DNA of 64,000 nt from Candidatus Dormiibacterota bacterium. Its GTDB lineage: Bacteria; Chloroflexota; Dormibacteria; Aeolococcales; Aeolococcaceae. Positions 1-38,784 of this stretch are shown here, piece by piece. A program made the translations under genes and the position numbers. Position 1 is the first letter of the stretch. Every line of letters starts with the position of its first letter. The DNA lies in NCBI GenBank assembly GCA_049582105.1, contig JBAUTG010000005.1, forward strand, positions 2,672 through 66,671. The letters are read 5' to 3'. The notes beneath the pieces were generated by a model, which saw only the letters and a list, made by a program, of their open reading frames with translations, was not told the DNA's origin and ran no database searches.

Positions 1-1400
1 TGTACGAGTACCTGCTCTCGCTCGACGCGCTTCCCGAGCCGCCTGCGCGCCGCGACGGCAACGGTCACGGGCCTGCGGACACCACGCTCATCGGCGCGGA
101 GGAAGTCGCCGCGCTCGGTCGCAACGGCGCCATCAAGACCAGGTCCGAGCCGAGCCATACGCTCGAGACGGTTGCCCGGCCGGAACCCACGCCTGACGCC
201 CACCGTGAGCCCGAGCCCAAGCCTGAGCACCGGCTGAGGGCCACCTCGACCGCCGAGGACATGGAGGCCGGCCTCGCCGAGCTCGATGCCCAGCTCACAC
301 CCGACGAGTACGTCGACGACACCGAGGGCACCGAGGTCGAGGTCGAGGTCGAGGTCGAGGTCGAGGTCGAGGTCGAGGCCGAAGCTGTGACCGAGGTTGC
401 GCCGGCCGAGGCCGCCGCTGAGGCGGATCCCGCGCCTTCGCAACCCAAGGCCTCGGCACGTCCGGCGTTCACGCTCTTCCGCCGCACCGGAGCCAAGGCG
501 GCTCAGCCCGAGGCCGAGCCCAACGGCCACGCGCCGCTGGAAGCCGACGCAACGCCTGCGGCCGAAGCCCATGCGGTGTCGAACGGTCATGCGACCGCCA
601 GCCCCGAAGAGCCGGCGGCGACCGACGACGGAGCCGCCCATGCCCCGTTCGAGGCCGATGCCGAGGAGTCCTTCGTTGCTCCTCGGGACGGCTTCCATCT
701 CAGCGATCTCGCCGACTTCGCAGTCGCGCAGCGCGCGCTTGCGCCGGCGACCCCCGTCGAGGCCACCGTGGACGAGCCCGTCGCAGCCGTCGTGGAGGAC
801 GAGCCGGCGCAAGCAGAGGCGATCGCGGACGCCGAGGTCGCACCGGCCCAGGAGGCGCCGAACGGCGCGGCGGCGCGCGGCTGGAGGCTCCGTGACGACG
901 AGGTCGACCAGGCACAGGATGCCGCGTCCGACCGGTCTGCCGAGGACGATCGCTTCGACACCGACCCCGAGGTTGTGGAAGCGCGCCTCGAGATCAACGA
1001 CCGCCTCCGGCGCAGACGGTGCGACGAGGCGGCCGCACTGCTGCAGCGTCTCGCCAACGACGTCGGGGGTCGCGCGCTCGCCGAGCTCGCACTCGACGCC
1101 GGTGACCGCTGCCGCGCCCTCGGCAAGGGGAACGCCGCGCTCAGCTGCTACCTGGCCGCGTCGCGCGCGGATCCCGTGCACGAGACTCCATTGCTGCGTC
1201 TCGCGGACATCTGCATCGACGATCACGACATCGACCTTGCGGTCTCATACCTCGAGCGCGTCACGCGACTGCGCCGTCTACGCAATGACGACAAGGGTGC
1301 ACTGAAGCTGTATCGGAAGATCGTGACCATCGCGCCGTACCGCGACGACATCCTTGCGATGTTGATGCGCGCACAGGCCAACGGTCGCTTCGACGAATAG
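1..1400 (+). CDS. 5'-truncated hypothetical protein: acidic low-complexity region with an (EV)n repeat and a C-terminal TPR-like region
   Basis: The reading frame is open from base 3, in frame with the track ORF 261..1400. The protein is rich in E/A/P/D. The C-terminus ('LAASRADPVHETPLLRLADICIDDHDIDLAVSYLERV...KLYRKIVTIAPYRDD') resembles TPR helices. It lies immediately upstream of cpaB. Confidence 0.45.
   Translation, partial: YEYLLSLDALPEPPARRDGNGHGPADTTLIGAEEVAALGRNGAIKTRSEPSHTLETVARPEPTPDAHREPEPKPEHRLRATSTAEDMEAGLAELDAQLTPDEYVDDTEGTEVEVEVEVEVEVEVEAEAVTEVAPAEAAAEADPAPSQPKASARPAFTLFRRTGAKAAQPEAEPNGHAPLEADATPAAEAHAVSNGHATASPEEPAATDDGAAHAPFEADAEESFVAPRDGFHLSDLADFAVAQRALAPATPVEATVDEPVAAVVEDEPAQAEAIADAEVAPAQEAPNGAAARGWRLRDDEVDQAQDAASDRSAEDDRFDTDPEVVEARLEINDRLRRRRCDEAAALLQRLANDVGGRALAELALDAGDRCRALGKGNAALSCYLAASRADPVHETPLLRLADICIDDHDIDLAVSYLERVTRLRRLRNDDKGALKLYRKIVTIAPYRDDILAMLMRAQANGRFDE
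333..380 (+). repeat. (GAGGTC)n hexanucleotide microsatellite: 7 perfect units plus 1 variant, encoding EVEVEV...
   Basis: Direct reading: gaggtc repeated from 333 to 374, then gaggcc. It lies inside the first CDS. Confidence 0.9.
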
Positions 1401-1602
1401 CTCGTCATGAACATCTCCGGTGACACACGGCGTGTGCAAGCTCGTCCGCTGTGCGATGCGTTTGTTACCGAAAGGCGACGAACCACAGGGTGAAATCGAT
1501 CCACACTCGGTTGCGGCCGTCATCCGGTACAGCGACGCTGTGCCGGGCGAGCGCAGCCGCAACGGCGTAACCGACACCAATTGAGACAACCGAGGAGAAC
1601 AG

Positions 1603-2457
1603 GTGGCCATCCAGGCGAATAAACCGAACAGCCGAGTCTTCTTGCTTCTTGGCATCGTGCTGGCTGCGGCGGCGGCGGTGGCCGTGCTGCTCCTGGTCCG
1701 CTCGAATGCGCCAGCGAATCAAGTCAGTGTTGTCGTGTCTGATGCGGCCATACCCGCAGGAACGACCTTGACTCCCGCAATGGTCATCGTGACGCAGGTC
1801 CCCGCCGCTGCAAAGCCGGGTGACGCGTTCACCGATCCGGTCGCCGTCGTCGGCAAGACCACCACGGTCGCACTGGCAGACAACACGCCGCTCGTGCCTG
1901 CATTCTTCTCGACTCCCGCGCTCTCGATCACCTCGAGTGGCACCGGCTCGACCGCGCTCTCCGTGGAGACGCAGATCACCAAGGGATACGTCGCACTCGC
2001 GATTCCGGCGTCCGCAACGCTCCCGCCGACGTACACATCGGCGCAGCAGAACAACTTCACCGGCGAGCTCGTCTCTGCTGCCGGCTACATCCTGCCCGGC
2101 GATCACATCGACATCCTGGTCACCTCGATCGCGAACGGTGCGATCAAGTTCAGCTTCCAGGACGTCATCGTGCTCCGCGTGGGCGCATCCGGTACCACGG
2201 CCACGGGCGCACCCGCGGTGCTCCTCGTCGAGGTCCCGCGCGCACAGGCGTCACTGCTCACCGGCCTCATGATCGGAGACGGTGACCATGAGATCGTGGT
2301 CAAGTACGTGCTCCGTCCAGAGTCCGAGTGGGGCAAGCTTGCTCCCGACGGCTCGAGCTACAAGCCGAACTACGAATCGTCCGGTTCGCCGTCGCTGCCG
2401 ACCGTGTCGCAGACCACCGTGACGCCCAGCATGCTGGACAGTCTCTTCGGCGGCTGA
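1603..2457 (+). CDS. cpaB: Flp pilus assembly protein CpaB/RcpC (SAF plus RcpC C-terminal domain)
   Basis: There is an N-terminal TM helix ('VFLLLGIVLAAAAAVAVLLLV'), a SAF-like beta-rich core and the C-terminal block 'GDHIDILVTS...VIVLRVG', all typical of CpaB. It sits directly upstream of tadB. Confidence 0.8.
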   Translation: MAIQANKPNSRVFLLLGIVLAAAAAVAVLLLVRSNAPANQVSVVVSDAAIPAGTTLTPAMVIVTQVPAAAKPGDAFTDPVAVVGKTTTVALADNTPLVPAFFSTPALSITSSGTGSTALSVETQITKGYVALAIPASATLPPTYTSAQQNNFTGELVSAAGYILPGDHIDILVTSIANGAIKFSFQDVIVLRVGASGTTATGAPAVLLVEVPRAQASLLTGLMIGDGDHEIVVKYVLRPESEWGKLAPDGSSYKPNYESSGSPSLPTVSQTTVTPSMLDSLFGG

Positions 2458-2463
2458 TAAGTC

Positions 2464-3444
2464 ATGACGCCAGCCGCCGTCGTCGCAGCGGCCTTGGCCG
2501 CGTCGGCAGTCCTTTCGATCTTCGCCTTCCTCCTCAGCCGGGGTCAAAGCCAGGCTGGGGAGATGGCTCGCCGCCTCAACCAGTATGGCGGCGAGACGGT
2601 CGCCGTCACGGCACCGCAGAGGGTGAAGACCGGCAACGCGCTGCGGGACGCGCTCGAAGCGGTCACCAATGGCCTGAACCCACTCCTCTCGCGCACGTCA
2701 CACACCGGCAAGCTCGCGGACGACCTCCAGAAGGCCGACCTCAAGCTGAAGTCGTCGGAGTGGCTGCTCATGGTGGTGGGGCTCGGCGTCCTTGTCGGCC
2801 TGCTCGTGGCATTGCGCTTCTCCTCGCCGATCGCCTTCATCCCGTGCCCGATCATCGTGTATGTGCTCAGCGGCTTCTTCCTGAAGTTCCGCCAGAAGCG
2901 ACGGACCCGCGCGTTCAACAACCAGCTCGGCGACACGTTGATGTTGCTGAGCAACGCGTTGAAGGCAGGGCACTCCTTCGCGCAGGCGCTGGCGTCGGTT
3001 GCGAAGAACGCGAACCCGCCGATCTCCGAGGAGTTCAGCCGCGCAACGCGTGAGATCGCCCTCGGCATCAACGTCGACGAGGCGCTCAACCACATGGTCA
3101 CGCGCAACAAGTCCGAGGACTTCGATCTCATGGTCACCGCCGTGCAGATTCAGCGTGTGGTCGGTGGAAACCTCGCCGAGATCCTCGACACCATCGCGTT
3201 CACCATTCGTGAGCGCGTGCGCATCCAGGGTGAGATCCGCACGCTCACCGCGCAGGCTCGCGCGTCCGGTTGGATCATCACCATCCTGCCGATCGCACTC
3301 GCAGGATTCCTCGCGCTCATCTCCCCAAGCTACTTCGATCCGATGATCACCGATCCGCTTGGACACATCATGCTCGGCATGGCGGTCTTCTCCATTGCGG
3401 TCGGCGCCGTCGCGATCCAGAAGATCGTGAAGATCGAGGTCTGA
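2464..3444 (+). CDS. tadB: Tad secretion system inner-membrane platform protein TadB (T2SS F domain)
   Basis: It has the T2SSF-type motif 'LGDTLMLLSNALKAGHSFAQAL' and three TM segments, 7 nt downstream of cpaB. Confidence 0.85.
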   Translation: MTPAAVVAAALAASAVLSIFAFLLSRGQSQAGEMARRLNQYGGETVAVTAPQRVKTGNALRDALEAVTNGLNPLLSRTSHTGKLADDLQKADLKLKSSEWLLMVVGLGVLVGLLVALRFSSPIAFIPCPIIVYVLSGFFLKFRQKRRTRAFNNQLGDTLMLLSNALKAGHSFAQALASVAKNANPPISEEFSRATREIALGINVDEALNHMVTRNKSEDFDLMVTAVQIQRVVGGNLAEILDTIAFTIRERVRIQGEIRTLTAQARASGWIITILPIALAGFLALISPSYFDPMITDPLGHIMLGMAVFSIAVGAVAIQKIVKIEV

Positions 3445-3445
3445 C

Positions 3446-4390
3446 GTGAGTCTTCTCGCCATCGCAGCCGCCGCGGCCGCCGCCGGCGGCATCCTCCTCA
3501 TCGCCTTCGGCCTCGCCATGGCCGTGTCCCCACGCCAGGGCGATCTGCTTGAGGCTCGCCTCGCGCAATTCGCCGAGGCTGGGCGCGCGCCCGCGACTCT
3601 CGCCGAGGTCGAGATGTCGTTGCCGCTCTTCGATCGCGTGGTGCGGCCGTTCCTCGACAAGATCGGCAATCGCCTGAATCGCAATGCGGGTCAGGGCAGC
3701 ACAGACGCGCTTCAGGAGAAGTTGAATCTTGCCGGCCGTCCATGGGGACTGACGGCGTCGGGCTTCCTCGCACTCCGCCTGCTCTCGATGCTGCTGTTCA
3801 CCGCAATCGGGTTCGCGCTCGCGCTCTTCGGCGCGCTGACGATGCCGCTGCTCGCCGTCGTGCCGGCCGGCGGTCTGATCCTCGGGTACCTCGGTCCTCA
3901 GATGGTCGTCGCGCGGCGCATCAAGAAGCGTCAGAAGGAAATCCTCCTCGCGCTGCCGAGCGCACTCGACCTCCTCACCATCTCGGTCGAGGCCGGTCTG
4001 AGCTTCGACTCGGCGCTCACCCGCGTCGTCGACAAGTACAACAACGAGTTCTCGAGAGAGCTCACGATCATGCTCAACGAGGTTCGCCTCGGCCGCCCAC
4101 GTCTCGAGGCGCTCGATGACGTCGGTCGGCGTTGCAAGGTCGAGGAGCTGAGCAACTTCATCCAGGCGATCATCCAGTCGGAGCAACTGGGCGTCGGCGT
4201 CGCGAACGTCCTCCGCATCCAGTCCGAGGAGATTCGCCGCAAGCGCCGTCAGCGCGCTGAGGAACAGGGCCAGAAGGCCCCGCTGAAGATGCTCTTCCCC
4301 ATGGTCGGGTGCATCTTCCCCACGCTCTTCATCGTGCTGCTCGGTCCCGCCGTGATCGAGGTCGCCCACCAGTTCGGCGCCGCCCACTGA
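3446..4390 (+). CDS. tadC: Tad secretion system platform protein TadC (T2SS F domain)
   Basis: It has the motif 'LPSALDLLTISVEAGLSFDSAL'. It starts at GTG 1 nt after the tadB stop and has TM helices at both ends. Confidence 0.85.
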   Translation: MSLLAIAAAAAAAGGILLIAFGLAMAVSPRQGDLLEARLAQFAEAGRAPATLAEVEMSLPLFDRVVRPFLDKIGNRLNRNAGQGSTDALQEKLNLAGRPWGLTASGFLALRLLSMLLFTAIGFALALFGALTMPLLAVVPAGGLILGYLGPQMVVARRIKKRQKEILLALPSALDLLTISVEAGLSFDSALTRVVDKYNNEFSRELTIMLNEVRLGRPRLEALDDVGRRCKVEELSNFIQAIIQSEQLGVGVANVLRIQSEEIRRKRRQRAEEQGQKAPLKMLFPMVGCIFPTLFIVLLGPAVIEVAHQFGAAH

Positions 4391-4486
4391 TCGACCGTCA
4401 GGACAGCTGGCGGACGGGGCGGCTGATTGACCGTCAGGACAGCTGGCGGATGGGGCGGCTGATTGACCGTCAGGACAGCTGGCGGA
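4387..4486. repeat. 36-bp tandem direct repeat, 2.8 copies, spanning the tadC stop codon and the stop of the convergent downstream gene
   Basis: Copy 1 (4387-4422) is ctgatcgaccgtcaggacagctggcggacggggcgg. Copy 2 (4423-4458) is ctgattgaccgtcaggacagctggcggatggggcgg. A partial copy 3 runs 4459-4486. Each unit contains a near-palindrome around CAGCTG. Confidence 0.85.
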
Positions 4487-5426
4487 GGACGCGTTCGAGC
4501 TGACGCCGGTGCGCGATGCGCCAGCGGGAGCGCAGCGCCGGCACCGACCGGTACACCTCGGGGACGGGAGCGTCGTCGTTGACTGCGACGCGCAGCAGTG
4601 TGGCGATGGTCTCGCGCAGCTCGACGAGCTGCAGCGAGCGCGCAACCTCCAGCGCCGCCGAGACGCGGGCCTCCTCACCCGAGTGCATCCAGTCCTCGAG
4701 CGCATCGACGAGACCCTCGCGACCGTCGGCGATCACGATGTGCGCGTACTCCGTCAGCTGCTCAGTGAGCGTTGTCACGTTAGTCTCGAAGCGGCGCTCC
4801 ATGTAGGCGAGGATCGCGTCGCGCGCGCTCTGGTGCGCGAGCACCGCCACGAGGCCGGGAGCGGTCCGGCCGATCAACAGCTTCTCGAAGGGCGAGACCT
4901 CGAGATACCCGATGTGGGCGCCTGCGCTCGACACGAGCCACGGGCTGCCGTCGCCCCGATACAGGCAGAGGTTGTCCGGCAAGCCTGGATGCTGCCAGCC
5001 GTAGAGCCCGCCCGTCGCCTCCTGGAGCACCGTGACGCTCTCGCGGCTCAGGGCGTAGCGCACGAGGCTCCCAGACGCCGTGGTCGTCTTCGCCTGCTGG
5101 AAGCGCGCCAGGCTGTCGACAGTGGCCTGCCCCTCAGGGTCCATCTCGCCAGGCCGCACCGTGAGCACGGCAGTCGAGCACTGGACCAGGGCGCACTCCA
5201 GCAGACCGGCGTAATCCGGGCCCCTCGGCTCGTCGAGCAGATCGTAGGTCTTGCGCGCCGAGACGTCGCTGTGGGAGGTGCGAAGGAACGGTTGCACAGC
5301 GCAATTCTGTAACGAAATCCCCGGTTCCAGCGAGACGAACGCGTGGTACCTTCCTCTCGTGGCCGCGATAGTCGCATCTATCGACAGCACCCCGGGCCAG
5401 GTTTTTGCCGACGCGCTGCTGGTCAT
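4470..5426 (-). CDS. hypothetical protein (no recognisable domain); the true start is probably internal
   Basis: This is a long ORF of ordinary amino-acid composition. Its 5' end as drawn would overlap the lower-GC intergenic stretch and the cvpA start, so an internal start such as GTG near 5159-5165 or ATG at 5144 is more likely. Confidence 0.35.
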   Translation of the reverse strand: MTSSASAKTWPGVLSIDATIAATRGRYHAFVSLEPGISLQNCAVQPFLRTSHSDVSARKTYDLLDEPRGPDYAGLLECALVQCSTAVLTVRPGEMDPEGQATVDSLARFQQAKTTTASGSLVRYALSRESVTVLQEATGGLYGWQHPGLPDNLCLYRGDGSPWLVSSAGAHIGYLEVSPFEKLLIGRTAPGLVAVLAHQSARDAILAYMERRFETNVTTLTEQLTEYAHIVIADGREGLVDALEDWMHSGEEARVSAALEVARSLQLVELRETIATLLRVAVNDDAPVPEVYRSVPALRSRWRIAHRRQLERVLRQLS

Positions 5427-5937
5427 CGCAGTGGCCGTGAACGCCTATCTGGGCTGGAGTCACGGGTTGGTTCGCCGCCTCTTCTCGGCGGTCGGCGTCT
5501 TCCTCGGCGTCTTCGCCGCAACCAACCTCGGCAACGCCGTGGCCGCGGTGATCCACGCACACAACCTCGATGCCAACGCCTGGTCGTTCGTGGCGGTCTT
5601 CCTGTTCGTGGTCATCGTCGTCGAGATCCTGGGGGCGCTGATGGACGACCGGCTGCAGAAGATCGTCGTCGCGGCGTTCGACCGGATCGGCGGCGTGCTC
5701 GTGGGCGCGGTTGTCGGCGTCGCCGAAGTGCTGATCCTCTTCCTGGTCGCGATCGCCGTCAGCGGCTCAGCGTCGTCGACGCACACCACCATGTCGCAGG
5801 ACATCCACGCCGCAACCCTGAGCGGTCAGGCAGTTCGGCTCGAGCCGCAGATGCGCGTCCTCTTCGGACCGGTGCTCCCGGGCAACCTGACCAGTCACCT
5901 GCAGCAGAACGCCGTGGTGATCACCCCGCCCGTCTGA
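5359..5937 (+). CDS. CvpA family membrane protein (colicin V production protein-like)
   Basis: It carries the CvpA-like N-terminal TM plus basic motif 'LLVIAVAVNAYLGWSHGLVRRLFSAVGVFLG' followed by more TM helices. The start was placed at GTG 5359, after the lower-GC intergenic segment, and the track ORF frame is retained. Confidence 0.55.
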   Translation: MAAIVASIDSTPGQVFADALLVIAVAVNAYLGWSHGLVRRLFSAVGVFLGVFAATNLGNAVAAVIHAHNLDANAWSFVAVFLFVVIVVEILGALMDDRLQKIVVAAFDRIGGVLVGAVVGVAEVLILFLVAIAVSGSASSTHTTMSQDIHAATLSGQAVRLEPQMRVLFGPVLPGNLTSHLQQNAVVITPPV

Positions 5938-5964
5938 CCGAGATTCCCGGCGGGTCGAGCCGCC

Positions 5965-6354
5965 TCAGCGGACGGAGCTGACGTCAGCCGGGAAGAACGT
6001 CTTGACCACCGAGCCGAGCCCGACGAGGTTGAACGGCTTGGTGATGAGGTGATTCGCGCCCGCGAGCCGTGCGCGCTCGATGTCGTCGTCGCTGGAAAGC
6101 GCGCTGAACATCACGATGGGCGTTTCCGCCGTGGCGGCGTTGCTCCGGATCCGGCGGCATGTCTCGATCCCGTCCATGCCGGGCATCATGATGTCAAGGA
6201 TCACGAGGTCCGGTGCACGCGCTTCGACTTTGGCAAGCCCGTCCTCACCGTTCTCGGCGGTGGTCACCTCGTAGCCCTCGATGCCGAGGTACATGGCAAC
6301 GATGTGCAAAAGCCTCGGATCATCATCGACGATGAGGATTCGACCCCGAGTCAC
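5965..6354 (-). CDS. single-domain response regulator (CheY-like receiver)
   Basis: It has the canonical receiver signatures 'ILIVDDD' and 'DLVILDIMMPGMDG' and the conserved Lys in 'ITKPF'. It starts at GTG 2 nt after the upstream gene's stop. Confidence 0.85.
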   Translation of the reverse strand: MTRGRILIVDDDPRLLHIVAMYLGIEGYEVTTAENGEDGLAKVEARAPDLVILDIMMPGMDGIETCRRIRSNAATAETPIVMFSALSSDDDIERARLAGANHLITKPFNLVGLGSVVKTFFPADVSSVR

Positions 6355-6356
6355 TG

Positions 6357-7058
6357 CTAGGCTCCCGCGCCACCCTGCGGCACGCTGATTCGGCCCTCAG
6401 CCATGTAATGGGAGAGGTCACGCTCGTGGCCGAGGCCGCGTTCGATCGAGTCCAGCACACGCTGGTAGAACTCCTCGCGTTCCCTGCGGTCCTCCTCCGC
6501 GCCGACGGTCTCGCCGCGCACGCGGTGCTGGATCCAGGGTGGGACGAGCTGTTCGACAGGGTTGCCGCCGACCTTGACCGTAATCATCGTGTCGTCGGCT
6601 TCCTCGACGACGATGCTGACGCGATGGGCGATGCCGACGTGGCTGTCCAGGCGCCATGAGCGCTCCCAGGCACGCTGGCGGCCGATCCCCACGAAGATGA
6701 GCGTGACGGGGTCGGCGACGAGCTGTCCGCCGCTGCCGGAGGACAGCTCCTTGAGCAGCAGACGCCAGACGTCACCGTCGATCTGCCGGGAGACCCAGCC
6801 CACCAGCGACGGCGCGCGATTGTCGAGGTCCGGCAGGGACACCGCGAGCGAGCTGTCGAGGCTCGGGAGGGCGCTGACGACGCCGGCATGGCGGCGGCAA
6901 TAGACGTGGCCCTCGATCGTGACGCGGTGCTCGGGGCACCAGGCGGTCCGGCACTCGCGGCCCCGGCGGTCGACGTACTCGCACGGCTTGCCCTCGTCGG
7001 AGGTGCATCCCAGCTGCGTGCACGGGTGCGTTGCGGTGTCGCTCATCACGCTGCGCAC
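6357..7058 (-). CDS. hypothetical protein with a Cys/His-rich N-terminal zinc-ribbon-like region
   Basis: The first ~60 residues contain C13, C18, C26, C36, C41, H44, H51, C54 and H57. It is translationally coupled to the downstream receiver gene. Confidence 0.45.
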   Translation of the reverse strand: MRSVMSDTATHPCTQLGCTSDEGKPCEYVDRRGRECRTAWCPEHRVTIEGHVYCRRHAGVVSALPSLDSSLAVSLPDLDNRAPSLVGWVSRQIDGDVWRLLLKELSSGSGGQLVADPVTLIFVGIGRQRAWERSWRLDSHVGIAHRVSIVVEEADDTMITVKVGGNPVEQLVPPWIQHRVRGETVGAEEDRREREEFYQRVLDSIERGLGHERDLSHYMAEGRISVPQGGAGA

Positions 7059-7094
7059 CTTAGCATCGGTCGAAGCAACACGAACCTCCCTCGC

Positions 7095-7814
7095 TCACCA
7101 CAGAAATGGGACAAGTCGCCGCGTGTGAGCGGCGTACGACGTGTATTCCGGAAAGGCACGGGTGAGCAAGCCTTCCTCGAAGCGAGCTCGGAGCATCTGC
7201 ACCGCGATGAACGGGACGAGCGCGAGCGTCGCCCAAAGACCCGGCCGGGCCAGCACGAGCGCGACGGCGGCGAGGATCTCGGCCGCGTAGAGCGGGTGCC
7301 GAACGACGCGGTACGGGCCACTGGTCACAAGGCGGCGCGCCTCGGGAATGATGCTGAGGCTCCGGCGCAGATAGAGCAGTCCGTACACACCCAGCGCAAA
7401 CGCGCCGAGCGTCAGGGGAACGGCCGCGTCGCGGATGAGCACCGGCGGAACCAGCAGCACCGGCAGCGGGAAGGCGCCGACCACGAGGAGCATCGTCGTC
7501 CCGACCAGCCCTGCGGCGCGCGCGACCACGCGCCCGTCGCGCGCTTTCGGGCGCGGACGCACCAGATAGATCCCGACGGGGATGACGCAGAACGCGAGGT
7601 ACACCCCGGTCGTCACCGGTCCGGCGAGCACGCCGCCGAGGTGGTCGTGCCTGGGAAGATCGTGAACCTGCGCAAGCAGGTTCATCAGCACGCGATAGCC
7701 AAGCACGGCAAACAACACGGCCGGTAGCGCACGACCGAACACGAGGAAACGGATCTCCTCGACGCGACGTGCCACGTCGCCACGGCGTGCTGGAATCGCT
7801 ACCGCCTGGGCCAT
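7095..7814 (-). CDS. isoprenylcysteine carboxyl methyltransferase (ICMT/PEMT) family membrane methyltransferase
   Basis: It has the C-terminal signature 'GPYRVVRHPLYAAEIL' and a multi-TM N-terminal half. Confidence 0.75.
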   Translation of the reverse strand: MAQAVAIPARRGDVARRVEEIRFLVFGRALPAVLFAVLGYRVLMNLLAQVHDLPRHDHLGGVLAGPVTTGVYLAFCVIPVGIYLVRPRPKARDGRVVARAAGLVGTTMLLVVGAFPLPVLLVPPVLIRDAAVPLTLGAFALGVYGLLYLRRSLSIIPEARRLVTSGPYRVVRHPLYAAEILAAVALVLARPGLWATLALVPFIAVQMLRARFEEGLLTRAFPEYTSYAAHTRRLVPFLW

Positions 7815-8048
7815 GCGCCAACTCTAGGTCAGCTGTATTCAGAGCGACGCGTCTGTATCGCGGTTGTCATCGAATCACCATGGTTTCTCGTCGTCTGAGC
7901 AGTGTCCGCCGGCGTGTCCGATCCTTCGTTACCAATCTTTAGCACGCAGGCCATTCCGTTGCCGCAGCAGGGGTACACACTCGCTTCAGTCGGAACAGAG
8001 CAACAAGCCCTGGCCCGAAAATAAAACCCGAAAGGAGGTGAAACCGGA

Positions 8049-8249
8049 ATGGATATGCTGAGCACCCTGTACCTTCGCGCAACTGAGTTTATCGCTCGCA
8101 AGCGTGAGGAGGCTGAGGAAGGCCAGGGCATGGTTGAGTATGCGCTCATCCTCGTCCTTATCGCCATCGTCGTCATCGTCATCCTGCAAGTCGTCGGCAA
8201 GCAGGTCAACAACGTGTTCTCGAACATCAGCAACGGCCTGGCCCAGTAG
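8049..8249 (+). CDS. flp: Flp/Fap family type IVb pilin precursor
   Basis: The sequence 'EEAEEGQG|MVEYALILVLIAIVVIVIL' shows the Flp motif: a G-cleavage site followed by XXXXEY and a hydrophobic stretch. It is 66 aa long, with a strong SD (GGAGGTG) 10 nt upstream. Confidence 0.85.
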   Translation: MDMLSTLYLRATEFIARKREEAEEGQGMVEYALILVLIAIVVIVILQVVGKQVNNVFSNISNGLAQ

Positions 8250-8274
8250 CTTTCGCAAGCAACCAGGACAGTCA

Positions 8275-8314
8275 AGAGGAGCCGCCCCACGGGACGGCTC
8301 CTCTTTTTTATTTG
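8275..8314 (+). terminator. rho-independent terminator downstream of flp
   Basis: There is a perfect 10-bp stem (agaggagccg at 8275-8284 pairing with cggctcctct at 8295-8304), a 10-nt loop, and then ttttttattt at 8305-8314. Confidence 0.8.
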
Positions 8315-8333
8315 TCGTGAACATCGCGCAGCG

Positions 8334-9665
8334 TTGCTGCAGCACGGCATTCCACGTCGGCACGAATCGCCGTACCATGCGCACGATGCACGGCGGATGC
8401 GAGGTGCGGCGGTGATCCGCGTTCTGATAGCGGACCGAGTGACGCGAATCGTCGGAGACCTCGAGAAGCTCGCGCCCTTTGCTGAGACCGTCGACGTCTG
8501 CGGTGTCGCCCACCAACCGACGGCGGTCATCGAGGAGGCGTGGCTGCGCCAGCCCGATGTGCTCCTCCTCCACGAGACCTTCGCCGACCCGTCGGGCGCC
8601 GACTTCGCCGCCCATCTCGGGTCCGTGTCACCCGCGACCCGGGTGCTCCTCATGACCTCGAGCGAGCCGGCTGACGCGACCGCCTGGGTCGCGGGCACCA
8701 TCCATGACGGCGCCGACGGCACCGCGCTGTTCGAGGCGATTCGCGTCACGGCCGGGGTCATCCGGCCACGCGGTGGCGCGGGCGCCGAAACCTCGGAGCC
8801 GGACGCCGAGGCGCCGCCCGTGGTGGTCCCCGACCGCGAGCACCACGGACGCGCGACACTCGTCGTCGTCTTCTCGGGGAAGGGCGGCTCCGGGACCTCG
8901 ATGGTCGCCACCAACCTCGCCGTCGCGCTGGCGGGTAGCGCGGAGGGGCGGACCGTCCTCATCGACTCGGACCTCCAGTTCGGCGATGCCGCAGCGATGC
9001 TCCATGTGGAGAGCCATCTGCTGACGATCGCCGACCTCGCGGCTGCCGGTGAGGACATCGAGGCCGTCTTCCTCGACGATGTCCTGGCAACCGGGCCCGG
9101 CGAGGTCCGCGTCCTCCGCTCGGCGCCGAGCCCCGAGCTCGCCGACATCGTGACCGCGTCACGGCTTCGCGCAATGATCCGCGCGATCTCCACGTCGTAC
9201 GAGTTCGTGGTGGTCGACACACCCTCTCATCTCGACGAGCGCATGGTCGAGGTCTTCGATCTCGCCGATCGTGTGCTCGTGGTGAGCAGCTACAACCTGA
9301 CCGCCGTGCGCAGCGCCAAGGCGTCGATCGCGCTCCTCGAAGCGCTCGGGGTCACCCGCGACCGGATCGGAGTCGTCCTCAACCACACACGGCCGCGCGT
9401 GAGCTTCCGGCGCGAGGACGTCGAGGAGATCCTGGGCTGCCGCGCCCTGGCCGACCTGCCCTACGACCCCCGGGTCGACCAGTCGCTCGACTCGGGATCG
9501 CCGATCGTCCTCGCCCTGCCTCACGCCGAGCTGAGCCGGAGGCTCGTCATGCTCGCCGGGAGCGTGTCGTCGCCGTCAACCGCGCCTGGCACGTCTCCTT
9601 CCGAGGAACCGATGCCCGCACCGCCGCCAACCTACCGCCGGCGATTCAACCTGGGGCGGAGGTAA
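8334..9665 (+). CDS. cpaE: CpaE/TadZ-like ParA/MinD-family ATPase with an N-terminal pseudo-receiver domain (paralogue 1)
   Basis: It has the deviant Walker A 'VVFSGKGGSGTSMVATNLAVALA'. The N-terminal receiver-like fold lacks the phospho-acceptor Asp ('DVLLLHETF'). The start is probably ATG 8397 or GTG 8412, the latter preceded by GAGGTG. Confidence 0.75.
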   Translation: MLQHGIPRRHESPYHAHDARRMRGAAVIRVLIADRVTRIVGDLEKLAPFAETVDVCGVAHQPTAVIEEAWLRQPDVLLLHETFADPSGADFAAHLGSVSPATRVLLMTSSEPADATAWVAGTIHDGADGTALFEAIRVTAGVIRPRGGAGAETSEPDAEAPPVVVPDREHHGRATLVVVFSGKGGSGTSMVATNLAVALAGSAEGRTVLIDSDLQFGDAAAMLHVESHLLTIADLAAAGEDIEAVFLDDVLATGPGEVRVLRSAPSPELADIVTASRLRAMIRAISTSYEFVVVDTPSHLDERMVEVFDLADRVLVVSSYNLTAVRSAKASIALLEALGVTRDRIGVVLNHTRPRVSFRREDVEEILGCRALADLPYDPRVDQSLDSGSPIVLALPHAELSRRLVMLAGSVSSPSTAPGTSPSEEPMPAPPPTYRRRFNLGRR

Positions 9666-9674
9666 GGTGGCGCC

Positions 9675-10931
9675 GTGATTCGCGTCCTGATCGCCGACGG
9701 CAGCGAACGCATCCGCGCAAACCTCCAGCGCCGCCTCTCCGCCGAGGAGGACATCACCGTCTGTGGCACGGCCGAAGACGGTGAGCACGCCCTCCAGGAG
9801 GCACTGCATCTGGTACCCGATATCGCCGTCCTCGACGCCGGCCTGAGCGGCCTCGACGGGGTCCAGACCACCGAGATGCTCGCCGAGTACGCGCCCCAGG
9901 CCGGCGTCATCCTCATGTCGATGGAGAGCGGGAGCGAGCTCTTCCGCCGGGCGATGCTCGCCGGCGCGCGCGAGGTGCTGCAGAAACCCTTCACCGGCGA
10001 CGACCTGGTCGCAGCGATCCACCGCGTCCATGCATTCCAGGCGCGCAAGCGGGCTGCTCAATCGGCGCGTCAGCCCGCCAACGGTGGAGCGCCCCCGGCG
10101 GACGGAGCCCGGCGCCGGGACGGCCGGATGATCACCATCGTCTCGGGAAAGGGCGGTGTCGGCAAGTCGATCATCGCGACGAACCTCGCGCTGATCCTGA
10201 ACCGCCCGAACCCCGGCAGCGTGGTCCTTGTCGACCTCTCCCTCCAGTTCGGCGACGTCGCGGCGCTCCTGGCGATGACCCCGGACGGGACGATTGCCGA
10301 GTTCGCCGCAAGCGACGCCTCGATCGCCGATCGCCACGTGATCCAGCAGGCACTCTCGCTCGGCCCCCAGGGGCTCACCGTGGTCGCCGCCCCGCCGAGC
10401 CCTGAGCTGGCCGACTATGTCACCACCGCTCATCTGCGCTCGCTCGTCGCCGAGCTCCGCGCGACCTACGAGATGGTGGTGGCTGACACGACTTCCCAGC
10501 TCTCGGAGATCACGCTCGAGGCGCTCGAGAACTCGGACCACATCGTGCTCGTCACGGACTTCAGCGTGACCTCGGTGAAGAACACCCGCATGATCATGTC
10601 CGTGATCGGGGTGCTCCAGGTCGACCCCGAACGGATCATCGTCGTCGCCAACCACCGCGATGCGCCGCTCGCCGGGGGGATGGACAGGGCGCGGATCGAG
10701 GACTTCCTCCGTCACCCGGTCGCGGCGGAGATCCCCCATGACGCGGTTGCGATCGGCGCCTCGGTCAGCCTGGGCGTCCCCGTGGTCATCAGCGGCCACT
10801 CGTCGCCCGCGACTGCCGCGTTCGAGCGCCTCGCCGCCGTGGTGCTGGGAAATGCCGGACCCGAAACGCCTGCCGAGCCGCCGGGCAAGAAACGCGGCCG
10901 CAGACGCCTGGGATTCGCGTCAAGGGATTGA
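9675..10931 (+). CDS. cpaE: receiver-domain-CpaE/TadZ-like ATPase fusion (paralogue 2, canonical receiver)
   Basis: The receiver has 'IRVLIADGSE', 'IAVLDAGLSGLDG' and 'LQKPF'. The Walker A is 'ITIVSGKGGVGKSIIATNLALIL'. Confidence 0.8.
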   Translation: MIRVLIADGSERIRANLQRRLSAEEDITVCGTAEDGEHALQEALHLVPDIAVLDAGLSGLDGVQTTEMLAEYAPQAGVILMSMESGSELFRRAMLAGAREVLQKPFTGDDLVAAIHRVHAFQARKRAAQSARQPANGGAPPADGARRRDGRMITIVSGKGGVGKSIIATNLALILNRPNPGSVVLVDLSLQFGDVAALLAMTPDGTIAEFAASDASIADRHVIQQALSLGPQGLTVVAAPPSPELADYVTTAHLRSLVAELRATYEMVVADTTSQLSEITLEALENSDHIVLVTDFSVTSVKNTRMIMSVIGVLQVDPERIIVVANHRDAPLAGGMDRARIEDFLRHPVAAEIPHDAVAIGASVSLGVPVVISGHSSPATAAFERLAAVVLGNAGPETPAEPPGKKRGRRRLGFASRD

Positions 10932-10980
10932 TGTCGGAGGCCCGCGGGCCGCACGGGCCGCCGGCCACTGACCCTCGCGA

Positions 10981-12210
10981 TCAGCGGCCGAAGATGCGGC
11001 GCTTTCTCTTGTCGTCGGCCTTGCCGGCGCCGACCCCGGCCGCGATGGGTTGAGCGCCCGGGACGAGCGCCCCGGCGAGCTCGCGGATCGAACGGCTGAT
11101 GTCGGACTCCGGGCTGGCCGTCACGAAGGGCGTCCCGCGATTGATCGAGTCGCCGACGACCCTGGGGTCGTAGGGGATCTGCGCGCCGACTGTGTGCCGG
11201 AGGTTCTGCTCGATCGAGTCCTTGTTGAAGTCCGAGTGTGCGTCACTGCGGTCGACGACAAGGAGGATCGAAGCCGGATCGACGGTGAGCGACTCGAGCA
11301 CCTTGAGCGCGAGCTTCGCGTCCTTGATCGCCGGGATCGTGAGCGCCGTGACCACGAGGACGTGCTGCGCTGATTCGATCACCTCGAGGTTGAAGTCCGC
11401 GAGATGGCACGAGGTGTCGACCACCACGTAGTCGTATGTCTTGCGCAGCTCGGCCATGACCATGCGGACGTGGTCGTTGGTGATGAGGTCGGCGAGCTCA
11501 GGGCTGATCGGTGCGAGCAGGACGCGAACCCCACCCGGACCGTGCGCCATGATCTCGTTCAGCATCTCCGGCTCGAGCGTTTCCGAGTCGACGACGTCGG
11601 TGATGCTTCGACTGTGGTCCAGGTTGAGCATCACGCCGATGTCGCCGAACTGCAGGTCGAGGTCGACCAGGGCCACGCGCGACTCGGTCTCGACCGCGAG
11701 CGCCACCGAGAGGTTGGTGGCCAGCATCGTCTTTCCGACGCCACCTTTGCCCGAGAACAGCACGATCACCTCACCGAGCGCCGCCGCTCGTGGCGCACCT
11801 GAGGCGTCCGGCAGCGACGCCCGCGCGAACGTCCCCTTCTTCTCCTCGAGCTGATGCACACGGCGGATCGCCGCGACGAGCTCGTCATGGCTGAAAGGCT
11901 TGATGAGGTACTCGCGAGCACCCGCCTGCATCGCGCGGCGGAGGTAGTCGCGCTCGCCCTGGACCGACATGATGATCACCGGCGAGGCCGGCAACTCCTG
12001 GGCGAGCCGCTCGGTGAGCTGGATCCCGTCCATGATCGGCATGTTCACGTCCGTGAGGACGATGTCGGGCAGCAGGCGGTGCGCCTCCTCGAGGCCCTGC
12101 TTGCCGTCGCCGGCAGTACCGATGACCTCGATGTCCTCTTCGAACCCGAGGAGCTTGCGCAGGTTGTCCCGAGTGCTCGCGATGTCGTCGACGATGAGGA
12201 GCCGGATCAA
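10981..12210 (-). CDS. cpaE: receiver-domain-CpaE/TadZ-like ATPase fusion (paralogue 3, canonical receiver)
   Basis: The receiver has 'IRLLIVDDIAS', 'IVLTDVNMPIMDG' and 'LIKPF'. The Walker A is 'IVLFSGKGGVGKTMLATNLSVALA'. It starts at TTG (12208-12210), 13 nt after the rplA stop. Confidence 0.8.
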   Translation of the reverse strand: MIRLLIVDDIASTRDNLRKLLGFEEDIEVIGTAGDGKQGLEEAHRLLPDIVLTDVNMPIMDGIQLTERLAQELPASPVIIMSVQGERDYLRRAMQAGAREYLIKPFSHDELVAAIRRVHQLEEKKGTFARASLPDASGAPRAAALGEVIVLFSGKGGVGKTMLATNLSVALAVETESRVALVDLDLQFGDIGVMLNLDHSRSITDVVDSETLEPEMLNEIMAHGPGGVRVLLAPISPELADLITNDHVRMVMAELRKTYDYVVVDTSCHLADFNLEVIESAQHVLVVTALTIPAIKDAKLALKVLESLTVDPASILLVVDRSDAHSDFNKDSIEQNLRHTVGAQIPYDPRVVGDSINRGTPFVTASPESDISRSIRELAGALVPGAQPIAAGVGAGKADDKRKRRIFGR

Positions 12211-12223
12211 ATCGAAGGCGTCC

Positions 12224-12934
12224 TCAGCCCACCGTCAGCCGTGCTGCCTGAACGGGGTCGACCGGGATGCCCGGTCCCATGGTCGAGGCAACGGTCACGG
12301 TCTTCACGTAGGTGCCCTTTGCCCCCGACGGCTTGGCTCGAACGATCGCATCCATCAAAGCGGCGAAATTGTCGCGCAGTTTGTCGTCATCGAACGAGGC
12401 TTTACCGATTGCGGCATGAATAATTCCAGTCCTGTCATTTCGGAACTCGACGCGACCACCCTGGACGTCCTGGATTGCCTTGGCGATGTCGAAGGTGACG
12501 GTGCCCGCCTTGGGGTTCGGCATGAGGCCGCGCGGGCCGAGGATCTTGCCGAGGCGCCCGACCATCCCCATGACCTCCGGGGTGGCGAGAGCGACGTCGA
12601 AGTCGATGACGCCCTCCTGGACCTTCTTGACGAGGTCCTCACCACCCACCACGTCGGCGCCCGCCTCGATTGCCTCGCGCAGCTTCTCGCCGGTGGCGAA
12701 GACGGCGATTCGCCGGACCTTGCCGGTGCCGTGGGGCAACGTGACCGTGCTCCGCACGACCTGGTCGGCGTGGCGCGGGTCGATGCCGAGACGGACGTGC
12801 GCCTCGATGGATGAATCGAACTTGGTGGTCGCGGTCTGGCGGACCAGGCTCATCGCCTCCGCGGGCGGATAGAACTTGCCGTCCTCGATCGCCCCGGCGG
12901 CCTCGCGGTACTTCTTGCCGTGTTGTGCGGGCAT
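12224..12934 (-). CDS. rplA: 50S ribosomal protein L1
   Basis: The sequence '[55 protein letters not shown]' is an unmistakable L1. Confidence 0.95.
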
Positions 12935-12985
12935 GTGACTTCTCCGTGGTGTTGGCGGGCGCCCGGCGCCCTCCCACTCAGTGGC

Positions 12986-13408
12986 TCAGTTGACGTTCAG
13001 ACCCATGGATCGCGCCGTCCCCTCGATGATCTTCATCGCGTGCTCGAGGTCATGCGCGTTGAGATCCGCCTGCTTGACCTCGGCGATCTCGCGGACCTGC
13101 TGCCTGGACAGCGTGCCCACCTTCTCCCGGTTCGGGACGCCCGAGCCCTTCTCGACTCCAGCGGCCTTCTTCAGCATCTCCGCGGCAGGCGGCGTCTTGG
13201 TGATGAACGTGAACGTGCGGTCCTCGTACACCGTGATCTGTGCGGGGATGACCCCCGACTGGTTCGCGGTGCGCTCGTTGTAGGCCTTGCAGAACTCCAT
13301 GATGTTGAGTCCGTGCGGACCGAGCGCGGTGCCCACCGGCGGTGCGGGAGTCGCCTTGCCGGCCTGCAACTGCAGTTTGATGACGGTCTTGATCTTCTTC
13401 TTGCTCAT
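12986..13408 (-). CDS. rplK: 50S ribosomal protein L11
   Basis: It has the L11 signature '[40 protein letters not shown]'. Confidence 0.95.
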
Positions 13409-13420
13409 CTGTCCTCGCCC

Positions 13421-13984
13421 CTATCGCAACCGTTCGACCTGAAGCAGGTCGAGCTCGACGGGCGTCTCGCGGCCGAACATGTTCACGAGCACCTTCAGCT
13501 TGCCCTTCTCGACGTTGATCTCAGTCACCTTGCCGTGGAAGTCGGTGAACGGACCGTCGATGACGCGCACGTTCTCGCCGACCTCGTACTCGACGTTGAC
13601 CTTGGTCGGAGCCTCGGCTTTCACCTGCTTCTGGATGCCCCGAATCTCGTGCTCCTGCAACGGAACGGGCTTGTTCCCCGAGCCGACGAACGACGTGACT
13701 CCGGGAGTGTTGCGAACGACATACCAGGACTCGTCGGACATGACCATGTTGACGAGGATGTAACCGGGGAAGATCCGCTTGCTGACCTTGCGGCGCTGGC
13801 CGTCCTTGATCTCCATGACCTCTTCGGTCGGCACGAGCACGTCGAAGATCTGGTCATGCATGTCCATCGACTCGACACGCTTGAGAAGGTTCGCGCGAAC
13901 TTTCTCCTCGTGTCCCGAGTAGGCGTGGACGACGTACCAGCGAGCGTCCTTGGCGGAAACGGCGTTAGTGACCACGATGCTCAT
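13421..13984 (-). CDS. nusG: transcription termination/antitermination factor NusG
   Basis: The NGN domain is 'WYVVHAYSGHEEKV'. The KOW domain is 'GENVRVIDGPFTDFHGKVTEIN'. Confidence 0.95.
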   Translation of the reverse strand: MSIVVTNAVSAKDARWYVVHAYSGHEEKVRANLLKRVESMDMHDQIFDVLVPTEEVMEIKDGQRRKVSKRIFPGYILVNMVMSDESWYVVRNTPGVTSFVGSGNKPVPLQEHEIRGIQKQVKAEAPTKVNVEYEVGENVRVIDGPFTDFHGKVTEINVEKGKLKVLVNMFGRETPVELDLLQVERLR

Positions 13985-27524: not shown

Positions 27525-30500
27525 CTACGCGGACGCCGCGAACAGAGCCTCGCCCTGGCGGATGTAACGCGTCGCGCCGACCGAGCGGTAGAAGGCGAGC
27601 GCACGCTGCAGTTCAATGTCTGCCTCGGCTCTGCGACCGCGTCCGATGAGTGACTCGGCGAGCACGAGCCGGTCCCGGGCTTCGTCGGTGACGGCTCCCA
27701 TCGACGCGTGGATGCCGGCCGCCGCGCCGAAGTCGCCTGATGCGAAGGCTCGCGCGGCGAGGACCCAGGGGATGTCACTCTGGACAGTGCATGCGAGCAG
27801 GTCCTCGCCGCGCCCAAGCTTGATCAGCGTCCACGCCAGCGCGTGCAGAGCGTCCGCGTAGACCAGGCTACTCCCCGGCGTGCGGAGGTTCTCGAGCAGC
27901 TCGTCGGCGAGCGCGCCGGCGCGCTCGGCGTCCCCGCACTCGAGGAAGATCTGCCCTGCGGCCGCCAGCGCCGGGTAAAGGATCTGCCGATCCTTCGCAA
28001 GCCGCGCGAGCGCGAGCGATTGCTCCGCATCGCGCAGCGCACCCGGTGCGTCGTCGCGACCGAGGCGGATCTCGGCGCGGATCATGTAACCGTCGGCGGC
28101 AAGGTAGTGAGGCGAACCGGCCTCAACGTCCGCAAGGAAATGCTCAGCGCTCGTGTGCGCAGCATCCCAGTCACCCAATGCGTAGCAGCTGTGCCCCATG
28201 CTTGCCTGCAACCAGGTGACGAAACGGCTCAGGCCGTATCGAGTGGCGATCACCACGGCTTCGGCAACGACGACCATCGTGCGTTCGAGGTTGCCATTGG
28301 TCCACAGGACTGACGCGAGATTCGATCGCGAGCGGCTGCCCTCCAGCGCAAGCTCGTTCTGCTCGGCGATGCTCACCGCCAACTCGAGATCTGCGATTCC
28401 ACCCAGGTCACCGTGATTGCCACGCGCTGCGCCAATGTTGTTCAGCGCGTGGACGCGTACCTCGTCGAGTCCAAGAAAATCGGCCATTTCGAGTGCGGAG
28501 CGCCCGATGCGGATCGCTTCCTCGTCCTCGCCAGCGAGCATGAGGTATCGCGACACAGTGCTCGTCACGTGCGCCTTGACGCGCGTCGTCTCGCCCGCCT
28601 CGACCAGCTCGCGCGCTCGTGTGAGATGCGCGAAGGCCCGACTGGCATCACCCTTCACCCAGATGGCCTCGGTGAGGAGAACCTCAGCCTCGGCCGCGGT
28701 CGCGCTGTCACCGCACTCGACAAGCGCGGCGCTCGCCGCCGTCAGCATCTCCTCATCCTGTTCGCCGGCCTGGTATCGCGATCGGCCGAGTACGAACAGC
28801 AGGCGAGCGCGATCATGTGAATCGGGCGCGGCGAGGTCGAGTGCCGAAGCGTAGAAGCTGCTCGCCTTCGACCAGGCGTTGAGCGAGTAGGCTCGGTCAC
28901 CTGCGTCGCGCACGCTGTCCAGGGCACGTGCTGCGAAACTCGCGTCGACCTTGCCGCCCGTTGCGCGGTCCAGTTCGAGTGCGCTCATGTAATGGTGCGC
29001 GAGCATCTCGGCATGATCCTCGGTACGTCCGAGTGACCCGATCCACGCGGCGGCGAGGCGATGCTTCTCAGCGCGTTCGCCACGCGGGATCTGGCCGTAT
29101 GCGACATCACGCACGAGCACGTGGAGAAACGCGTACTCCGCCTCGCCGGCCACCGACGAACGCCGCGCGCGTTGCACGAAATCCTTGCGCTCGAGGGCGT
29201 GGAGACGCAGTTCCGCGGTACGGCGATCGAGTCCGACGGCCACCGCGCCCAGCCAGAACACCTTACCGAGCACCGACGCATCCTGAAGGAGTCGCTTCTC
29301 GTCCGAAGTCAGCGCATCGAGACGCGCGGCGATGATGCCCTGCACCGTTTCCGGCAAAGGCAGGTCTTCCGCGTCACCGCGCTCCGCGAGCATCCGAACG
29401 TACTGCTCCGCATACAGTGGGTTGCCGCCTGCGCGCAGCAGCAGGGCCTGATGCGCTTCCGCGGCCATCACCGGTCGCTCGCTCAGGCTGCTGATGAGCC
29501 GCGATGTCTCGTCGTCGGTGAGCGGCGCCAGCGAGAGCCTGATGGCGTTGCGCGTCGTTCCCGCCCAGCCGGGACGGCGTTCCAGGAGCTCCGGCCTGGT
29601 GCTGCACACGACCAGCATCGGCACGCCACCCGCCCAGTCCACGAGGTGCTCGACAAAGTCGAGCAGGTTGTCGTCCGCCCAGTGCAGGTCCTCGAACACC
29701 AGCACGAGTGGGTTCTGCTCTGCGAGTGCCTCGAAGAAGCGCCGCCAGGCGGTGAACGCCTCCTCGCGCCGGTCGCCGGTCACGTCAGCTCCGGTGCTGA
29801 CGCCGGCCAGAGGACGTAGGTGACCGGAGATCCACTTGGCGTCGGCGGGATCGGCGATCAGCGCCGCAACTGCGGCGTCGAGCCGTTGCTCGGCCTCCGC
29901 CTCAGTGTGTGTTTCGAGGATGCCGGCCTGCGCCTTGACCATTTCGGCGAGCGCCCAGAACGTCACGCCGTCGCCGTAGGGGAGCGACCGTCCCTGCCTC
30001 CAGATCACGAACGTCTCCGGGTCGGCGTCGACTCTCTGAAAGAGCTCGGCGACCAGCCGGCTCTTGCCGATGCCGGGAACACCGACCAGCGTGACGAGCT
30101 GAGGCGACCGTTCGCGCTGGACACGAGCAAGCGCCTCGGTGAGCACGAGCGACTCCTGCAGCCGCCCCACGAGCGGCGAGCGATTGGCAGCGAAGAGGTC
30201 AACACCCATCCGCGAGCGTGCCTCAACGACCTCCCATGCCTTCACGGGCTCTGTCTTGCCCTTCGCTGCAACGGGCATCGCCTCCCGGTACGAGATGGAG
30301 TTCGACGTAGCCCGGTACGTGGTCTCCCCGACGAGGATGCCGTTGACCGGTGCCGCCGTCTGCAGCCGCGCCGTCGTGTTGACGACATCGCCCGAAGCCA
30401 TCCCCTCACCGTGAGTCGGCTGGGCGCCGAGCGAAACCAGCGCCTCACCGGTGTTAACGGCGATGCGCAGTTGCAGGTCCGCCTCCTGCTCCTGCACCCA

Positions 30501-30896: not shown

Positions 30897-30929
30897 ATCG
30901 CGGTGGCCGGCCTCCAGACGCCGTGCGGC

Positions 30930-31720: not shown

Positions 31721-31849
31721 TTACCGTAAGGTATTGCTTACGCTCTGCTCCTGTCAACTTCGCGGCGCCGGTCACCGCTCCCTGAACCGCCCGCCTGGAG
31801 CGCTGAATATGGCGAATCTCCGCGAGAAAGCGACCATTCCGTTGTCAGC

Positions 31850-34393: not shown

Positions 34394-34395
34394 CC

Positions 34396-36098: not shown

Positions 36099-36120
36099 AC
36101 CGTCACGTTCGATCGCGGCT

Positions 36121-38730: not shown

Positions 38731-38784
38731 CGCCGGCTGCCGCACCGCGTCCGCCCGCCCACCCACTCCCGCGGCGGGCAACGT

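Follow-up and report, generated by a model that had tools for sequence, protein, structure and literature searches.

A type IVc (Tad/Flp) pilus locus that encodes a platform, a pilin and three ATPases of the CpaE type, and neither a secretion ATPase nor a prepilin peptidase, raises the question of whether its genes are split over distant sites or whether its architecture dispenses with the usual motor. Both readings had been offered in an earlier note on such a set of genes, which occupies positions 1603-12210 of a 64-kb stretch of DNA (68% G+C; hereafter the window) from a metagenome-assembled genome (MAG) of Candidatus Dormiibacterota (Dormibacteria), an uncultured soil bacterium. The gene calls and family assignments of that note, whose coordinates and descriptions were essentially right, were reproduced here by gene calling guided by the G+C content of third codon positions (GC3) and by Pfam and NCBIfam scans, with Pfam run on about 55 open reading frames (ORFs) spanning the 64 kb. 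Of its two readings, the split locus stands, and an unusual architecture, in the sense of CpaE-like ATPases that do without a secretion ATPase, is not supported. The locus is a conserved split variant of a known machine and not a new machine, and we consider it likely that most of a type IVc pilus system lies in the window, its genes being dispersed over at least four transcription units and inherited vertically in this layout.

Tad systems are seen as modules that occupy a single locus and are often transferred, in which the position of tadA directly 5' of tadB is typical, although not strictly defining (PMC6668835). The split-type loci of the Dormibacteria depart from this order: cpaB abuts tadB, the tad parts are spread over about 20 kb, and in relatives cpaF lies 9.5-15 kb away in inverted orientation. 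In the window, a cpaB/rcpC-like gene (1603..2457, plus strand) encodes an N-terminal transmembrane segment followed by a SAF domain, and is succeeded by tadB (2464..3444, plus; T2SSF, E = 3e-21) and tadC (3446..4390, plus; T2SSF, 1.3e-19), a paralogous pair of T2SSF platform proteins whose genes are 1 nt apart. The adjacency of cpaB and tadB had been described before, with a gap of 7 nt that we re-measured as 6 nt. The CpaB product matches SAF above the cut-off (8.9e-8), and RcpC (6e-4) and TIGR03177 pilus_cpaB (2.4e-14) below their curated cut-offs; it has no sequence match among solved structures. Its position beside the tad genes supports the putative CpaB/RcpC assignment, and its orthologue in conventional relatives is found between flp and cpaE.

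The absence of a secretion ATPase from the 64 kb is true of the window only: neither Pfam nor tblastn with Dormibacteria CpaF (best E = 0.95) detected a T2SSE ATPase there. A TadB-based scan, with one genome per species, gave 80 loci for comparison (L-numbers below), essentially all from Candidatus Dormibacteraeota/Dormiibacterota MAGs, with TadB orthologues that are 61-99% identical; many of these MAGs stem from palsa, bog and fen samples of Stordalen. Four distant loci (L074, L076, L079 and L080) show the textbook order flp-cpaB-cpaE-cpaF-tadB-tadC, with a CpaF of 497-522 amino acids and the Walker A motif VSGGTGSGKTTTLN; in the TadB/TadC tree they form one clade, which also includes L081, a short contig showing only cpaF abutting tadB. 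When this conventional CpaF was used as a probe, N-terminal fragments appeared at the extreme left, on the minus strand, of many split-type loci. A search for the conserved start MSLLDRV, in which only loci with a full 10-kb left flank were counted (n = 28), placed the cpaF N-terminus (MSLLDRVQRKAEG...) on the minus strand 9.45-9.99 kb 5' of tadB in 26 of these 28 close relatives. The nearest relative, L002 (CAVOMR010000002.1), has a TadB 99% and DNA 89% identical to those of the window and is colinear with window positions 1-13548; position 1 aligns with L002:7576, and cpaF starts at L002:496 on the opposite strand, about 7.1 kb to the left of position 1. It had been pointed out earlier that cpaF and tadV genes immediately 5' of position 1 would make this a conventional locus. 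cpaF is not found there, so the locus is not conventional, and in relatives the gene is nonetheless present at the distance given.

In the close relatives, cpaF and cpaB are separated by six unrelated genes along with a conserved one of the unk550 type (described below). The full-length cpaF orthologue closest to that of L002, P0102, encodes 547 amino acids, and its Walker A, Walker B, Asp-box and His-box motifs are all intact. On its contig, L082, the order is tadB, cpaB, unk544, a pair of ABC-2 exporter genes, a small gene for a lipoprotein-like product, a MacB-type ABC transporter gene, a CAP-domain gene and the divergent, monocistronic cpaF. On the far side of cpaF come a permease gene, a short T2SSE gene that is a second paralogue, three genes of unknown type and the par genes. 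The design recurs in two other clades, in which 11.8 kb and 15.0 kb separate cpaF from tadB.

The presence of two ATPases raises the possibility that TadB and TadC are driven by some other motor, be it the short T2SSE paralogue or the ParA-type ATPases, and that the distant cpaF serves another function. The short paralogue is indeed conserved, 1-3 kb from cpaF in split loci and a few kb 3' of tadC in conventional ones, and cpaF is monocistronic, with no physical link to tadBC. However, identity between the split-type cpaF and the tadB-abutting cpaF of conventional loci is about 68%, and both start with MSLLDRVQR, whereas the short paralogue reaches only 58-60% and does not have that N-terminal region. 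Given the shared N-terminus and this level of identity, the detached cpaF is therefore the orthologue of the tadB-adjacent ATPase. Moreover, no second T2SSF platform gene was found near either ATPase and MinD/ParA ATPases are not known to power pilin extraction in type IV filament systems, which leaves a different motor very unlikely. The short T2SSE/CpaF-like ATPase itself (389-419 amino acids; L082:12840-14009, L083:13211-14380, L084:14315-15574 and L074:15540-16745) has unknown acidic proteins as neighbours and no platform gene nearby. The small genes beside it were considered as pseudopilins or a peptidase and rejected, having neither family matches nor class III leaders. About 8-10 kb beyond cpaF there are genes for a ParA-like protein, ParB and ParA (L082:18325-21175, L084:18285-20976), and the whole region may be near the chromosome partition site or origin.

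The layout is not peculiar to the source genome. About 70 of the 80 loci (TadB 63-99%) repeat four blocks, namely cpaB-tadB-tadC, then (unk318, cvpA) REC129-(unk233)-PEMT, flp-(parA1)-(parA2) and parA3-rplA-rplK. All data come from metagenome-assembled genomes, and the split could accordingly be taken for an artefact of assembly or binning. However, the window is colinear with L002 over 13.5 kb, and the same order is shared by dozens of independent assemblies from various studies and sequencing technologies, with contigs of 0.3-1.4 Mb, and by the two closed chromosomes OY970355.1 and OY970307.1. The recurrence of the layout, closed chromosomes included, therefore shows that it is neither an assembly artefact nor a recent accident, and we give the artefact explanation next to no credence. 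As for exact matches to the window elsewhere, CpaB was found only on a 2.1-kb Logan contig, TadB had none, and the first 43 nt had none in metagenome contigs. A literature search on pili in Dormibacterota turned up nothing specific.

The second missing component is the prepilin peptidase. Pfam and two scans for A24 active-site motifs yielded no credible ORF for an A24 peptidase in the 64 kb, where the sole unassigned polytopic ORF is an ABC-2 permease, and none was found in the relatives' flanks that reach about 10 kb beyond cpaF. The claim that TadV is missing from the 64 kb thus holds, and the linked absence extends from at least -20 kb to +60 kb. The ICMT/PEMT-like and CvpA-like proteins of the window were considered as cryptic prepilin peptidases and rejected, since they have no A24 motif and match other families. 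TadE/TadF pseudopilins are also absent from the window, where flp is the only ORF with a class III signal peptide and the Pfam scans contained no TadE. It should be noted that unlinked peptidases have precedents. The tadV gene of Bifidobacterium invariably lies apart from the tad cluster (PMC13091076), the dispersed Tad system of Bdellovibrio appears to use PilD associated with its type IVa pilus (bioRxiv 10.64898/2026.07.08.737194), and prepilin peptidases are at times common to several systems (Denise et al.). Because of the first two precedents, an unlinked peptidase is by itself no strong sign of anything unusual.

These absences from the 64 kb (T2SSE, A24 peptidase and pseudopilin genes), together with the loss of catalytic residues in parA1, one of the CpaE-like genes, could mean that the locus is in decay, the remnant of a Tad system that is left without ATPase and peptidase and has ceased to make pili. 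Yet the core ORFs are all intact, Flp is 98-100% and TadB 91-99% identical across about 35 related MAGs (Flp is 100% identical in all loci of the close clade but one), and an intact orthologous cpaF occurs in conserved nearby synteny in every clade examined. The layout is old and stable, as purifying selection would give, and we therefore hold decay to be highly improbable.

The pilin gene itself is typical. The flp gene (8049..8249, plus) encodes a prepilin of 66 amino acids with a 25-residue leader and a match to PF04964 above the cut-off (1e-9). Cleavage is predicted within EEG/QGMVEY, the stretch after EEG being QGMVEYALILVLIAIVVIVIL, which gives a mature protein with E5-Y6. The pilin-like features that the earlier note proposed for it were upheld. 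The gene had also been described as lying apart from tadC with its own signals, and this too is borne out: 3.66 kb separate the flp start from the tadC stop, flp is preceded by a GGAGG Shine-Dalgarno sequence, and a very strong intrinsic terminator follows at 8274..8315 (plus). This has a 14-bp G+C stem followed by UUUUUUAUUU (U6AU3), with a folding energy of -32 kcal/mol (z = -6.64; 0 of 200 shuffled sequences fold as well). Its stem has a bulge, and a simple terminator scan missed it; folding recovered it. A terminator after the pilin gene of tad loci was reportedly described by Kram et al. in 2008 as part of a 'termination cascade'.

Divergent from flp is a gene for an ICMT/PEMT-family membrane methyltransferase (7095..7814, minus; PEMT 1.5e-9, ICMT 2.7e-6, isopcys_mtase 9e-15, the last below cut-off). 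The pairing of the two genes is kept in both split and conventional loci, although most other tad genes are rearranged between them, and a role of the enzyme in pilin modification is conceivable. In conventional loci, a gene for a soluble HisKA_3 kinase lies between the methyltransferase gene and flp (L074:4373-5467, L079:4384-5565). No orthologue of this kinase was found in the window or in split-type loci. The kinase of the conventional loci is a candidate for phosphorylating the CpaE proteins that carry a receiver (REC) domain, which would fit phospho-control.

Three genes for CpaE/TadZ paralogues of the MinD/ParA type follow near flp. The first, parA1 (8397..9665, plus), is degenerate; its ORF is open from a TTG at 8334, with ATG 8397 as the likely start, and its product matches ParA, CbiA and AAA_31. 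Its receiver-like N-terminus has no Pfam receiver match and a weak NCBIfam one (5e-5), the phospho-accepting Asp is replaced by His (LLLHETF), and the P-loop Lys of its Walker A motif has become Thr (GKGGSGTS), as in the clade to which the window belongs. This Lys has been lost in 31 of the 52 parA1 orthologues with a readable motif. The second, parA2 (9675..10931, plus), encodes a receiver (Response_reg 6e-21) that keeps the phospho-Asp, Ser and Lys and has D-G as its acidic pair, joined to an ATPase with the Walker A motif GKGGVGKS; it is 31% identical to parA1 in a colinear alignment and 40% to parA3. The third, parA3 (10981..12210, minus), has a complete receiver (Response_reg 2e-29; DD, D54, S and K) and the Walker A motif GKGGVGKT. 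The deviant Walker A signature KGGxGK[ST] is thus present in parA2 and parA3, and its Lys is lost in parA1; similarly, an atypical, non-phosphorylatable receiver occurs only in parA1, whereas parA2 and parA3 match PF00072 strongly and keep the phospho-acceptor Asp. The best matches of the CpaE/TadZ C-terminal domain among solved structures are ParA, FleN and MinD. Judged by these residues, the three proteins are a graded series from canonical to degenerate. The earlier note had counted three receiver-CpaE paralogues; there are three MinD/ParA paralogues near flp, of which two have receivers that look phosphorylatable and parA1 has a pseudo-receiver.

By sequence comparison, parA3 is the true CpaE/TadZ orthologue, because it shares 64% identity, from end to end, with the CpaE of L074, which lies between cpaB and cpaF in the conventional order; in public records parA3 is labelled 'pilus assembly protein CpaE' or 'response regulator'. 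That cpaE is normally a single gene was a fair statement, and the triplication is lineage-specific: some Dormibacteria clades, such as that of L036, L037 and L039, have parA3 only, and L012 and L024 have no parA1. In the L041-type (Dormibacter/Amunia-like) clade, including L045 and L050, parA1 and parA2 flank an M23 peptidase gene, and a second flp-like gene is found 3' of parA2. The gap of about 1.6 kb between parA1 and parA2 in these loci was considered as a hiding place for cpaF and rejected, as it encodes a coiled-coil M23 peptidoglycan peptidase (L041:15710-17032).

On the minus strand, rplA, rplK and nusG adjoin parA3, with parA3 and the rplA end of the array at 10981-12934. Between the rplA stop and the start of parA3, which share this strand, there are 13 nt, and the median gap in 47 loci is 13 nt (range 5-72 nt). 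Since a terminator would not fit into such a gap in most loci, parA3 is likely co-transcribed with nusG-rplK-rplA. It sits where rplJ-rplL usually follow these three genes, and appears to be the last gene of the operon.

How the parts would work together we infer from gene identities and synteny. The first unit would be (unk550)-cpaB-tadB-tadC. The second would be flp, with its own Shine-Dalgarno sequence and terminator, and parA1-parA2 would be reached by read-through or from a promoter of their own. parA3, at the 3' end of the nusG-rplK-rplA operon, would form the third, and the monocistronic, inverted cpaF, about 7 kb past the left edge of the window, the fourth. The Flp prepilin would be cut at G/QGMVEY by an unlinked A24 peptidase. 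By homology, a CpaF hexamer would dock on the TadB/TadC platform and polymerise the processed Flp, and CpaB would form an envelope-spanning collar. A secretin, of which none is present, would not be needed if the envelope is monoderm-like. The REC-CpaE proteins would position or licence the machine, with their receivers taking a phosphorylation input; parA3 and parA2 look phosphorylatable, and parA1, as a pseudo-receiver and pseudo-ATPase, would probably act as a scaffold or regulator of both. As to history, a conventional ancestral locus, as in the L074 clade, would be the most parsimonious start. From there, cpaE-cpaF would have been excised between cpaB and tadB, cpaF relocated and inverted, cpaE captured 3' of rplA, and cpaE-like genes duplicated beside flp.

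Several points weigh against a dispersed, working pilus system. The position of cpaF in the source genome is taken from that in relatives; no A24 peptidase or TadE/TadF was found from about -20 kb to +60 kb, so the system may not be complete; and neither CpaB nor the ParA paralogues reach the curated cut-offs for equivalogs.

Other genes lie between cpaB and flp, and beside them. The window opens with the 3' part of unk550 (3..1400, plus), a gene for an acidic low-complexity protein of about 550 amino acids with a weak TPR-like C-terminus (TPR_14 and TPR_12 at E = 0.008-0.1 only), which lies directly 5' of cpaB in all split-type loci. Its 544-residue orthologue in L082 has no Pfam match, and the protein is a possible accessory factor. 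We considered whether it corresponds to the gene 5' of flp in conventional loci and rejected this, as the two are not homologous and that gene is the HisKA_3 kinase mentioned above. A hexanucleotide repeat, (CGAGGT) x 8.5 at 332-382, encodes an (EV)n tract in unk550. Convergent with tadC is unk318 (4470..5426, minus), which encodes a conserved cytoplasmic protein of 318 amino acids with no family match and is present in most split-type loci. A 36-bp tandem repeat (2.8 copies, 96% match) at 4387-4486 covers the stop codon of tadC together with the 3' end of unk318, and duplicates the last codons of unk318; L002 does not have the extra copies, its tadC/unk318 intergenic gap is 8 nt, and the alignment breaks at the repeat. 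A CvpA-family (Colicin_V) polytopic membrane protein gene (5251..5937, plus; PF02674 1.6e-16), the true start of which is probably 3' of 5251, occupies a conserved position. REC129 (5965..6354, minus) encodes a stand-alone CheY-like receiver of 129 amino acids (Response_reg 1.3e-30) with the canonical DD...D...S...K residues, and is kept at 69-97% identity in all split-type loci. Between it and the methyltransferase gene lies unk233 (6357..7058, minus), for a protein of 233 amino acids with a Cys-rich N-terminus and no family match, and methyltransferase-unk233-REC129 is likely an operon. Further away, at 27525-44032, there is a dense signalling region with an adenylate-cyclase/STAND-TPR gene (27525-30896), three GGDEF-EAL genes (31850-34393, 35794-38730 and 41912-44032) and a gene for a hybrid PAS-GAF histidine kinase with two receivers and Hpt (38785-41856). 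These proteins could be cyclic diguanylate (c-di-GMP) regulators of surface behaviour.

Compared with the canonical systems of Aggregatibacter actinomycetemcomitans (flp-tadV-rcpCAB-tadZABCDEFG) and Caulobacter (pilA-cpaA-F), the split-type Dormibacteria loci share the G/XXXXEY motif of Flp, the TadB/TadC pair, a putative CpaB/RcpC, a MinD/ParA-type TadZ/CpaE and, in relatives, a CpaF-family ATPase. However, the genes do not form a single locus: cpaF is inverted 7-15 kb away, cpaE is detached and triplicated, and no secretin, TadD, TadV or TadE/F/G gene is linked. Monoderm and actinobacterial loci (Bifidobacterium breve tad2003, Mycobacterium tuberculosis Flp) likewise have no secretin, but their tadZ-tadA-tadB-tadC are contiguous, with flp-tadE-tadF alongside, whereas in Dormibacteria tadA/cpaF and tadZ are apart from tadBC, there are three TadZ paralogues and no pseudopilins are linked. 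Bdellovibrio bacteriovorus is similar in having several tad loci, extra tadA paralogues, no dedicated TadV within these loci and signalling genes nearby (bioRxiv 10.64898/2026.07.08.737194). There, tadC is separated and TadZ is fused to TadA without a receiver-like domain, in contrast to Dormibacteria, in which tadB-tadC are together, cpaF is detached and the TadZ paralogues have canonical receivers. Finally, TadZ of Eubacterium rectale also combines a receiver-like N-terminus with a deviant-Walker-A ATPase, and its receiver is reportedly atypical and non-phosphorylatable (Xu et al. 2012), unlike those of parA3 and parA2, which keep the phospho-acceptor Asp. Only parA1 resembles this atypical type, and it has further lost the P-loop Lys.

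A bolder view joins these elements: Tad control would have been rebuilt on a CpaE/TadZ module of three members, namely a canonical phospho-receiver ATPase (parA3), an intermediate (parA2) and a pseudo-receiver and pseudo-ATPase (parA1), together with a dedicated CheY-like protein; the transcription of parA3 with the ribosomal operon would tie positioning or licensing of the machine to the growth-rate-coupled expression of ribosomal proteins as well as to two-component signals, and the ICMT-like enzyme would modify the pilin. We regard this combination as unlikely; if true, it would amount to a regulatory logic new to type IV filaments.

In summary, the 'missing ATPase' of this locus is a window-edge effect, which is a lesson for annotation, and locus-based detectors such as MacSyFinder/TFFscan may under-call Tad systems in genomes of this kind. 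The series of canonical to degenerate CpaE/TadZ proteins provides natural material on the regulation of positioning ATPases. Based on the conserved layout, a dispersed Tad system would be stably inherited across a whole class of uncultured soil bacteria, which fits the link that has been proposed between scattered organisation and vertical inheritance.

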